Part shown: in pieces, positions 33,431-33,672 of the stretch
Position numbering within the stretch: the stretch's first letter is position 1
How the letters are laid out: each line of letters begins with the position of its first letter
The notes under the pieces: model-generated
What the model saw: the letters and a program-made list of their open reading frames with translations, nothing else
Told to the model about the DNA's origin: nothing
Database searches by the model: none
Position numbers and translations under genes: made by a program
Origin: Chlamydiia bacterium
GTDB taxonomy: Bacteria; Chlamydiota; Chlamydiia; Chlamydiales; 2-12-FULL-49-11
Length of the DNA: 64,000 nt
Assembly (NCBI GenBank): GCA_022601435.1
Contig: JAJACQ010000020.1
Span: 85,535-149,534, forward strand
Direction of reading: 5' to 3'

Positions 33431-33672
33431 CCTAATGCGGGGCTCGCAGTACCACCATGTACACCTTCGCCCCGCATGTAGAAAAAAATTCATCCAAAAA
33501 ATTTTGGGAATCTTTCACTTAACTCGGCCTTGCAGGTACCCTTTTGTACATGCGGCGACCAAGTTAAGCAAAATCTTCTCCAAAAAATTTTGGGAATCTT
33601 TCACCTAAATTGGATCCTTGAGTACCCTTTTGTGCACGACGGATCCAATTGTAGGCAAAATCTCCTCCAAAA
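33431..33672. repeat. tandem 86/87-bp repeat (2 full units plus flanking partial units), each unit centred on a family A GTAC-core palindrome
   Basis: CCAAAAAATTTTGGGAATCTTTCAC occurs at 33494 and 33580, and CCAAAAAATC at 33667. The palindromes lie at 33435-33477, 33518-33568 and 33604-33655. Confidence 0.85.

Follow-up and report, generated by a model that had tools for sequence, protein, structure and literature searches.

We analysed a 64,000-nt window of the Chlamydiia bacterium contig shown above, in which two convergent genes, one encoding a PepP-like Xaa-Pro aminopeptidase and the other a cysJ-like reductase, are separated by a gap of 480 bp (33412-33891) that contains three units of a palindromic repeat, here called family A (33415-33672), and one module of a second repeat, family B (33688-33881; Table 1). 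Base numbers are window positions unless a contig of the genome (C) is named. The host genome (G000) is a 1.6-Mb draft of Candidatus (Ca.) Parasimkaniaceae type, sponge-associated, with 35% G+C, 41 contigs and 88% completeness. A first-pass annotation of the sequence had described the gap as full of structured repeats, and the three A units and one B module bear this out. The short open reading frames (ORFs) called over the array lie wholly inside repeat units and are best read as artefacts, as had been proposed.

The best register of the array is TTTTGG...CCAAAA, which gives three full units placed head-to-tail with AA joins. Tandem Repeats Finder returned a period of 86 with 2.2 copies (33485-33675), in agreement with the 86/87-bp tandem repeat of the first-pass annotation, whose count of two units plus a fragment is replaced by three full units. 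Its motif positions were all correct (CCAAAAAATTTTGGGAATCTTTCAC at 33494 and 33580, and a truncated CCAAAAAATC at 33667), and the outer stems do differ between units yet are self-complementary within each: ATGCGGGGC/GCCCCGCAT at 33435-33477, then CTTAACT.GG/CC.AGTTAAG and AATTGGATCC/GGATCCAATT in the next two units. An outermost pair of arms brackets all three units and closes one large foldback, and the last three codons and stop of pepP (GGG AGG AGT TGA) sit inside the outer 5' arm. Taken alone, the outer-arm match at the array is weak (score 8.5 and z = 2.6 when the upstream flank was locally aligned with the reverse-complemented downstream flank), but pairing of outer arms around the units is general across family A copies. 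The family B module abuts the stop codon of the cysJ-like gene, the A array being attached to pepP and the B module to the cysJ-like gene in B's own polarity. The spacer folds better than shuffled sequence on both strands (z = -5.8 on the plus strand and -10.3 on the minus strand), and an Rfam 15 scan of it returned two sub-threshold matches only (23.6 bits with a cut-off of 60, and 19.4 bits with a cut-off of 58.6). The bracketing arms, the polarity at stop codons and the lineage-specific insertion of the spacer, both described below, are features absent from the first-pass annotation.

Table 1. Genes and repeats of the pepP/cysJ-like gap, and further family A and B sequences in the window.
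Feature	Position	Strand	Basis or remark
pepP-like (Xaa-Pro aminopeptidase) gene	32377..33411	+	ORF list; orthologues 53-63% identity, 8 relatives
Outer 5' arm AGGAGTTGATTA	33402..33413	+	pairs with outer 3' arm, 3' of unit 3
Family A unit 1, TTTTGG...CCAAAA; core subfamily GCAGTAC...ACCTTCG	33415..33499	+	nhmmer match 33415-33487, model positions 1-72
Family A unit 2; core subfamily TG-CAGGTAC...GTACATGCGGCG	33502..33585	+	nhmmer match 33502-33573
Family A unit 3; stems GGATCC/GGATCC	33588..33672	+	nhmmer match 33588-33660
Outer 3' arm AATCAACCCCT...	33673..33685	+	complementary to outer 5' arm
Family B module, multi-hairpin repeat	33688..33891	+	nhmmer match 33688-33881, model positions 4-197
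cysJ-like reductase gene, convergent with pepP	33892..35001	-	ORF list
Family A copy, degenerate	11056..11119	+	nhmmer
Family A copy, starting 14 nt past the stop codon of a minus-strand gene	11277..11347	-	nhmmer and stop-codon distance table
Other family B stretches	22966-23633, 25650-25712, 61894-61990		

Family A was collected from G000 by iterated nhmmer searches seeded with the three units and run to convergence, which gave 71 copies, 53 of them full length; the copy numbers of both families are lower bounds because several contigs end inside repeats. Contigs C4, C38, C40, C34, C29, C27 and C5 begin within A or B repeats. The whole element is ~95-115 nt long and consists of a G-rich outer arm, TGTC-TTTTGG, a variable stem, an internal loop, an apical stem and the mirror image of these parts. 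In the alignment, the conserved flanks are TTTTGGGTCTATTTTTC-CTATT ... TAGAAAAA, the variable stem has 7-9 bp, the internal loop is conserved and asymmetric (5' TCCGA, 3' ACTATC), and towards the apex follow a mismatch (A.A or G.A), an apical stem of 4 bp (GTAC/GTAC) and a variable loop of 4-7 nt. The mismatch beside the apical GTAC stem, at model positions 34/49, is the single conserved inner-stem mismatch that had been noticed in the window. The palindrome runs outward past the flanks, where it is joined 5' by a G-rich arm and TGTC, and 3' by TAC and a C-rich arm that has a few T's. Two truncated copies (C6 7240-7282 and C13 26868-26906) break at model positions 39-43, which is the hairpin tip and is where breaks are expected if palindromes are cut or deleted at extruded tips; C20 27063-27111 and C31 5321-5366 are further truncated copies, and other breaks fall at positions 27 and 53.

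The pairing of the stem is strongly maintained. RNAalifold, applied to 49 full copies, predicts 19 pairs, 15 of which show compensated double changes. Standard pairs account for 95.3% of stem cells (77.1% in shuffles, 38-50% when the partners are slid), and 157 cells have changed on both sides, compared with 39 in shuffles; none of 500 shuffles reached the observed value of any measure. The earlier observation of different stems with pairing kept thus holds genome-wide; complementary outer stems of differing sequence are present in copies at other loci, so the family survives the refutation test that the first-pass annotation had set for it. The GTAC-core palindrome was correctly described for this locus, but the sequence is not fixed. 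In 13 copies of P_S1_9 (G003; "Chlamydiae bacterium P_S1_9", Ca. Parasimkaniaceae, host sponge Halichondria panicea) the apical stem reads GTGC/GCAC, and in 5 it reads GTAT/ATAC. The apical stem thus covaries, and the sequence GTAC itself is not required. The same covariation rules out GTAC as a restriction site.

We classified the 1369 stem cells of G000 in the sense orientation, and found 1207 Watson-Crick pairs, 23 G.T, 87 A.C and 52 other combinations. Two inherited columns (16-68 and 17-67) contribute 47 of the 87 A.C cells, leaving 40 A.C against 23 G.T. Of 53 copies, 43 had the more favourable folding energy on the strand that is antisense to the gene upstream. This antisense advantage is mostly one ancestral feature, and the 40:23 remainder is weak evidence for a functional strand; a reading of the folding bias as a sign of antisense RNA or single-stranded DNA was accordingly downgraded to weak, the bias being mostly due to the two inherited columns. 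So few wobble intermediates are not what compensatory evolution at the RNA level typically leaves.

Placement was scored on a crude ORF map of G000 (1419 ORFs, 90% coverage). Most A copies are intergenic, 37 of the 71 lying between convergent genes; the six inside called ORFs are all in short ones (91-164 aa) in repeat-rich spacers, which we took as spurious. In 31 copies the model starts 4-33 nt past the stop codon of a same-strand gene, and two further copies lie directly 3' of tRNA genes. Gene 3' ends are found at the 5' side of the element in 33 cases and at its 3' side in 5, and P_S1_9 shows like placement and polarity (19:5). Family A has settled, in a single polarity, in the DNA immediately 3' of stop codons and of tRNA 3' ends. 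Family B is more abundant than A in G000 (~100 nhmmer hits to a module of ~100-190 bp), forms tandem arrays of up to six units (C35 6517-7512), and has gene 3' ends at its 3' side more often than at its 5' side (40 vs 18). The two families together make up 15 kb, equal to 0.94% of the genome and ~10% of non-ORF DNA, with A occupying 46 intergenic regions, B 73, and both 22.

A covariance model detected family A in all nine genomes of the GTDB genus to which the window belongs, with ~77 matches in G000, 35 in G003, 7 in G001 and 1-2 in each of the other six, while none was detected in 13 genomes of other genera in the same family, and only weak look-alikes were seen in 3 of ~190 further genomes of the order. 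Family A has expanded in two species (34 copies were counted in P_S1_9). A pattern scan for the core GAGTAC-N5-7-GTACACTRTCG in 185,579 genomes, one per species, gave mostly single chance matches, with several matches in only two chlamydial metagenome-assembled genomes (MAGs). One unrelated uncultured bacterium had four exact matches to the core pattern at 348-bp spacing in a tandem repeat (L045; CALZUQ010000022.1, 4172-5237). In G022 and G026 the look-alikes proved to be other long palindromes that share a frame, a T-run followed by GG. These genomes have their own long perfect palindromes (L066, G022:C4 ~43036-43131; L067, G026:C2 ~38093-38203; ~-100 kcal/mol over ~220-240 nt) with the frame TTTTTGAG-TC-TTTTTTC ... 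GAAAAAA-..-CAAAAA and different cores, and belong to other families of the order; the resemblance hints at a wider superfamily of foldback repeats. P_S1_9 also carries a recurrent motif, GGAGACTCTGA(A/T)AAAC..., 3' of several gene ends or A units (L073, after the pepP stop, and L078, L085, L094 and L096), which is probably another repeat family specific to that genome. Average nucleotide identity among P_S1_9, O_S4.1_5 and O_S4.2_27 is ~99.8% (PMC9666466). Relative G007 is MAG MiH-16apr19-145.

The pepP/cysJ-like spacer is 0-25 nt long in relatives (L069, L070, L071 and L074), compared with 480 here, which makes the repeat-filled spacer an insertion in the G000 lineage. In relatives G002 and G005 the two stop codons overlap or abut (TTAGTAA; overlapping at ~1492-1495 of L070, and at ~1495-1498 of L069), and there is consequently no room for a terminator between the two genes in those relatives. 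PepP homology ends at ..V(I/L)S and is followed by a variable tail, the codons for which (GRS*) come in G000 from the palindrome's outer arm. Comparison of these sequences shows that family A was newly inserted between the two genes in the G000 lineage.

Most orthologous gene ends are without an element. Among gene ends occupied in P_S1_9, 17 have a G000 orthologue and 8 of these are also occupied in G000: they follow dcd, gltP, glgP, an amidase gene, an HD-membrane gene and three others. The amidase site is occupied in G005 as well, and the HD-membrane site in G002; both tRNA-adjacent sites are common to G000 and P_S1_9. Conversely, G001 has an A copy at a gene end that is empty in G000. The stems at sites shared by G000 and P_S1_9 have been turned over by paired changes. 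We followed stem evolution in 11 pairs of copies at shared gene ends (G000 against G003, G002 or G005), where 126 paired positions were unchanged, 54 had changed on both sides with pairing kept, 2 had changed on one side and were kept via wobble, and 27 were broken. Both among paralogues and at shared gene ends, arm pairing persists while the stem sequences turn over.

Outside the conserved unit, the inverted repeats are specific to each locus, reach 19-25 nt and are far in excess of those in shuffled flanks (z ~10-17). Their reach takes in the final codons of the gene upstream or the 3' end of a tRNA, as where CCACCTCCATTTT pairs with AAAATGAAGGTGG. At glgP, the conserved codons RCFIA* fall within the G000 repeat, whereas the P_S1_9 copy (RCFIKD*) pairs only past the stop codon; since the P_S1_9 repeat spares the codons, the distal arm in G000 must be a copy of the constrained coding arm that was made once the two species had separated. 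In the array, units 2 and 3 carry matching indels in both arms, GGCC in one and GGATCC in the other on the 5' side and mirrored on the 3' side. Template switching at quasipalindromes is documented to make, repair and lengthen stems in single events (PMC8794818, PMC13100816, PMC8604942, PMC3820800), and the repair or extension of inverted-repeat arms in one event leaves multi-base compensatory changes (PMC8794818, PMC13100816, PMC8604942). The arm-copying features of family A have the form of a footprint of such template switching during replication.

The array is a mosaic. The core of unit 1 is 92% identical to a copy at C8 position 8986 and only 48-52% to its neighbours; that of unit 2 is best matched by the window copy at 11277-11347 (81%), and that of unit 3 by a copy at C31 position 5571 (77%), compared with 60% to the core of unit 2. 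The cores of the three units are 48-60% identical to each other, yet the 5' flanks of units 2 and 3 are 94% identical, the loop CCTTTT is common to both, and so is a 25-nt linker that is absent from the rest of the genome. Cores that resemble other loci more than their neighbours are not accounted for by simple tandem duplication with later drift. Two further cases come from elsewhere in the genome: a 97-nt inner unit is 99% identical (one base differs) at two loci with unrelated outer arms, and one A unit stands directly after the 5' half of another (C13 26868-26978). These patterns require either that copies convert or replace one another, or that units insert beside or inside those already present.

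Family A is securely a genus-specific, non-coding foldback repeat that enters and is retained at the 3' ends of transcription units in one polarity, with arms that remain complementary as their sequences change. In our reading the array is three adjacent copies of this repeat, which is non-autonomous and whose stem pairing is probably kept mainly at the DNA level. Hairpin-templated copying from arm to arm, by template switching in replication, would repair and lengthen the palindrome; conversion or replacement between copies would also keep the arms matched, and base-by-base selection on RNA would not be the main cause of pairing. New copies may be seeded by insertion at hairpin tips or by conversion between copies, both being possible. 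If co-transcribed with the upstream gene, an element is predicted to place a hairpin of ~-27 to -33 kcal/mol in the 3' untranslated region, which may incidentally block 3' exonucleases or transcription.

Several observations weigh against this DNA-level foldback reading. The fixed polarity (33:5 and 19:5) needs a strand-specific cause, which a symmetric process acting on a DNA palindrome does not supply. A selected function would be in keeping with the conserved internal loop and with retention at eight shared gene ends in species whose proteins are only 60-90% identical. Copies taken as orthologous may have been replaced by others, so that not all of the 54 double changes need have arisen in place. 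Finally, the drafts are 78-88% complete and their contigs often end in repeats, and a transposase could be missing from the assemblies.

The strongest rival, which we regard as possible though doubtful, is a selected RNA element of 3' ends, in which the hairpin serves as a terminator, an exonuclease barrier or a protein-binding site, and selection both keeps the pairing and sets the polarity. It would account for the strong polarity and for the tight spacing of the 31 copies that start 4-33 nt after a stop codon, for the same placement after two tRNA genes in G000 and G003, for the conserved loop sequence (TCCGA/ACTATC), for the eight gene ends occupied in both species, and for the clear covariation. 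It fits poorly with a copy number that ranges from 1 to 77 within the genus and with the emptiness of most orthologous gene ends. A simple scan and a T-tract count gave no support to a canonical terminator: the scan called no terminator-like site in the spacer, and T after the outermost pair was not in excess (5 of 42 cases compared with a background of 11%), a crude count in which the minimum-free-energy "outermost pair" is noisy. Many copies have a T-run in the 3' outer arm, where it is paired with an upstream A-run. On the sense strand there are 23 G.T cells and 87 A.C cells (40 once the two inherited columns are set aside), which is the reverse of what selection on sense RNA predicts, and arms that copy coding sequence are left unexplained by such selection.

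A conventional MITE (miniature inverted-repeat transposable element), cut and pasted by a DDE transposase acting in trans into the tips of existing hairpins such as terminators, would explain the locus-specific outer arms, and we judge it improbable. Family A resembles MITEs in being small, non-coding, multi-copy and variable in number (71, 34, 7 and 1-2 copies in the nine congeners), and both the nearly identical 97-nt inner unit flanked by unrelated inverted repeats and the A unit that follows the 5' half of another count in favour of this reading. At the 99%-identical pair, however, the alignment shows neither a target-site duplication nor distinct terminal inverted repeats of MITE type: identity extends from TGTC-TTTTGG to CCAAAA-TAC, and the palindrome then continues without a break into locus-specific flanks. 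Pfam searches found no Y1/RAYT (REP-associated tyrosine transposase, where REP stands for repetitive extragenic palindrome), RVT_1, IS110, DDE_Tnp_1 or rve gene in the drafts G000, G003 or G001, while control genomes matched in every search, and an all-against-all ORF search returned no multi-copy transposase-like ORF. A single ORF had further copies at contig ends (C37 23738-24880; partial copies lie at the C11 and C15 ends), and its 380-aa product by eye has MORN-type repeats and is not transposase-like. Nor is there a suitable target at the pepP site, where the ancestral state had overlapping stops and so no hairpin. Pre-existing hairpins as insertion targets were rejected also at the eight sites that are empty in G000 and filled in P_S1_9, none of which has a hairpin matching the P_S1_9 outer arms; one of them (C1 11897) holds an unrelated classical terminator.

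A REP or REPIN family mobilised by a RAYT, a link that the first-pass annotation had implied, is very improbable. The resemblance is general, both being palindromic, intergenic and clustered, with compensatory changes. The PF01797 (Y1, IS200/IS605-type) search found no match in G000, a genome 88% complete, while 6 of 14 genomes matched in the control search; the units are ~100 nt rather than 20-40 nt long, have no unpaired GTAG/CGTC tag and are paired out to their ends, and they stand head-to-tail on one strand instead of forming inverted dimers. Integron-type attC sites, which are folded single-strand palindromes 3' of cassettes, can hardly be entertained, for although structure conserved with variable sequence, fixed orientation 3' of an ORF and a slight bottom-strand G.T excess recall them, the neighbours are housekeeping genes (pepP, dcd, glgP, gltP, amidase, tRNAs), relatives keep the pepP/cysJ-like arrangement, which is the site where both neighbours were examined, G003 has orthologues of eight more of the occupied gene ends, the copies lie dispersed among 46 intergenic regions with no single array, and no R-box (GTTRRRY) was seen in the consensus, by eye alone.

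Family A finds its closest parallels among known classes of bacterial non-coding repeats. ERIC/IRU elements of Enterobacteria and Yersinia are imperfect palindromes of ~127 bp in transcribed intergenic DNA near gene ends. Like family A, they are non-coding foldbacks of ~100-130 nt whose copy number varies between relatives and which encode no transposase; family A differs in having no sequence relationship to them, no TA target duplication, a fixed polarity relative to stop codons and outer arms that copy the gene end, and in its occurrence in Chlamydiota. Correia (NEMIS/CREE) elements of Neisseria are MITE-like palindromes, 100-150 bp long, which are transcribed together with neighbouring genes and are able to fold into long hairpins as RNA; they have 26-bp terminal inverted repeats, a TA duplication and a site for integration host factor (IHF), none of which is seen in family A. 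Rickettsia palindromic elements (RPEs) are ~100-150 nt long, occur in the reduced genome of an obligate intracellular bacterium and have no known transposase. RPEs are known for inserting in-frame within genes, whereas family A stays outside them and reaches no further than the final few codons. The paper that mentions RPE-4 and RPE-6 also describes CGTC-tagged REPs as 20-40 nt long, with an unpaired GTAG/CGTC tag and no dedicated transposase for the CGTC class (PMC3733652). REPs, BIMEs and REPINs resemble family A as extragenic palindromes that cluster at gene 3' ends, and the mosaic of A and B recalls that of BIMEs, but REPs are mostly inverted dimers, while family A is head-to-tail, ~100 nt long and untagged, with no RAYT detected. 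Overall, family A works like the repeats of the ERIC, Correia, RPE and REP classes, and does not show the defining features of REP/RAYT systems or of classical MITEs.

Template-switch mutagenesis is a mutational process and not an element family. The paired indels and the outward growth of arms in family A match it, and it explains upkeep and growth, not the reach to new loci or the polarity. A bolder proposal, which we put forward only tentatively and think unlikely, is that A and its partner B are a transposase-independent, self-templating palindrome that is seeded at the 3' ends of transcription units, mends, extends and multiplies itself by template switching in replication and sometimes rewrites the last codons of genes. 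In a variant of this proposal, a lineage-specific protein that acts at 3' ends would recognise the conserved internal loop.

Chlamydial genomes are usually described as poor in repeats, and in our literature search no REP-, MITE- or ERIC-like family turned up for Chlamydiota, so families A and B are new for this phylum as far as could be found. They have practical consequences, because A and B repeats break MAG assemblies and create spurious short ORFs. Covariation tests for structured RNAs could also be misled by such elements, as the stems of family A covary like those of a functional RNA, yet other features point to copying of arms at the DNA level. If the self-templating palindrome were true, it would offer a tractable example of how repeats without a transposase, such as CGTC REPs and RPEs, spread. 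More generally, family A is a natural experiment on the spread and persistence of repeats with no known transposase, and on their possible co-option as 3'-end signals.

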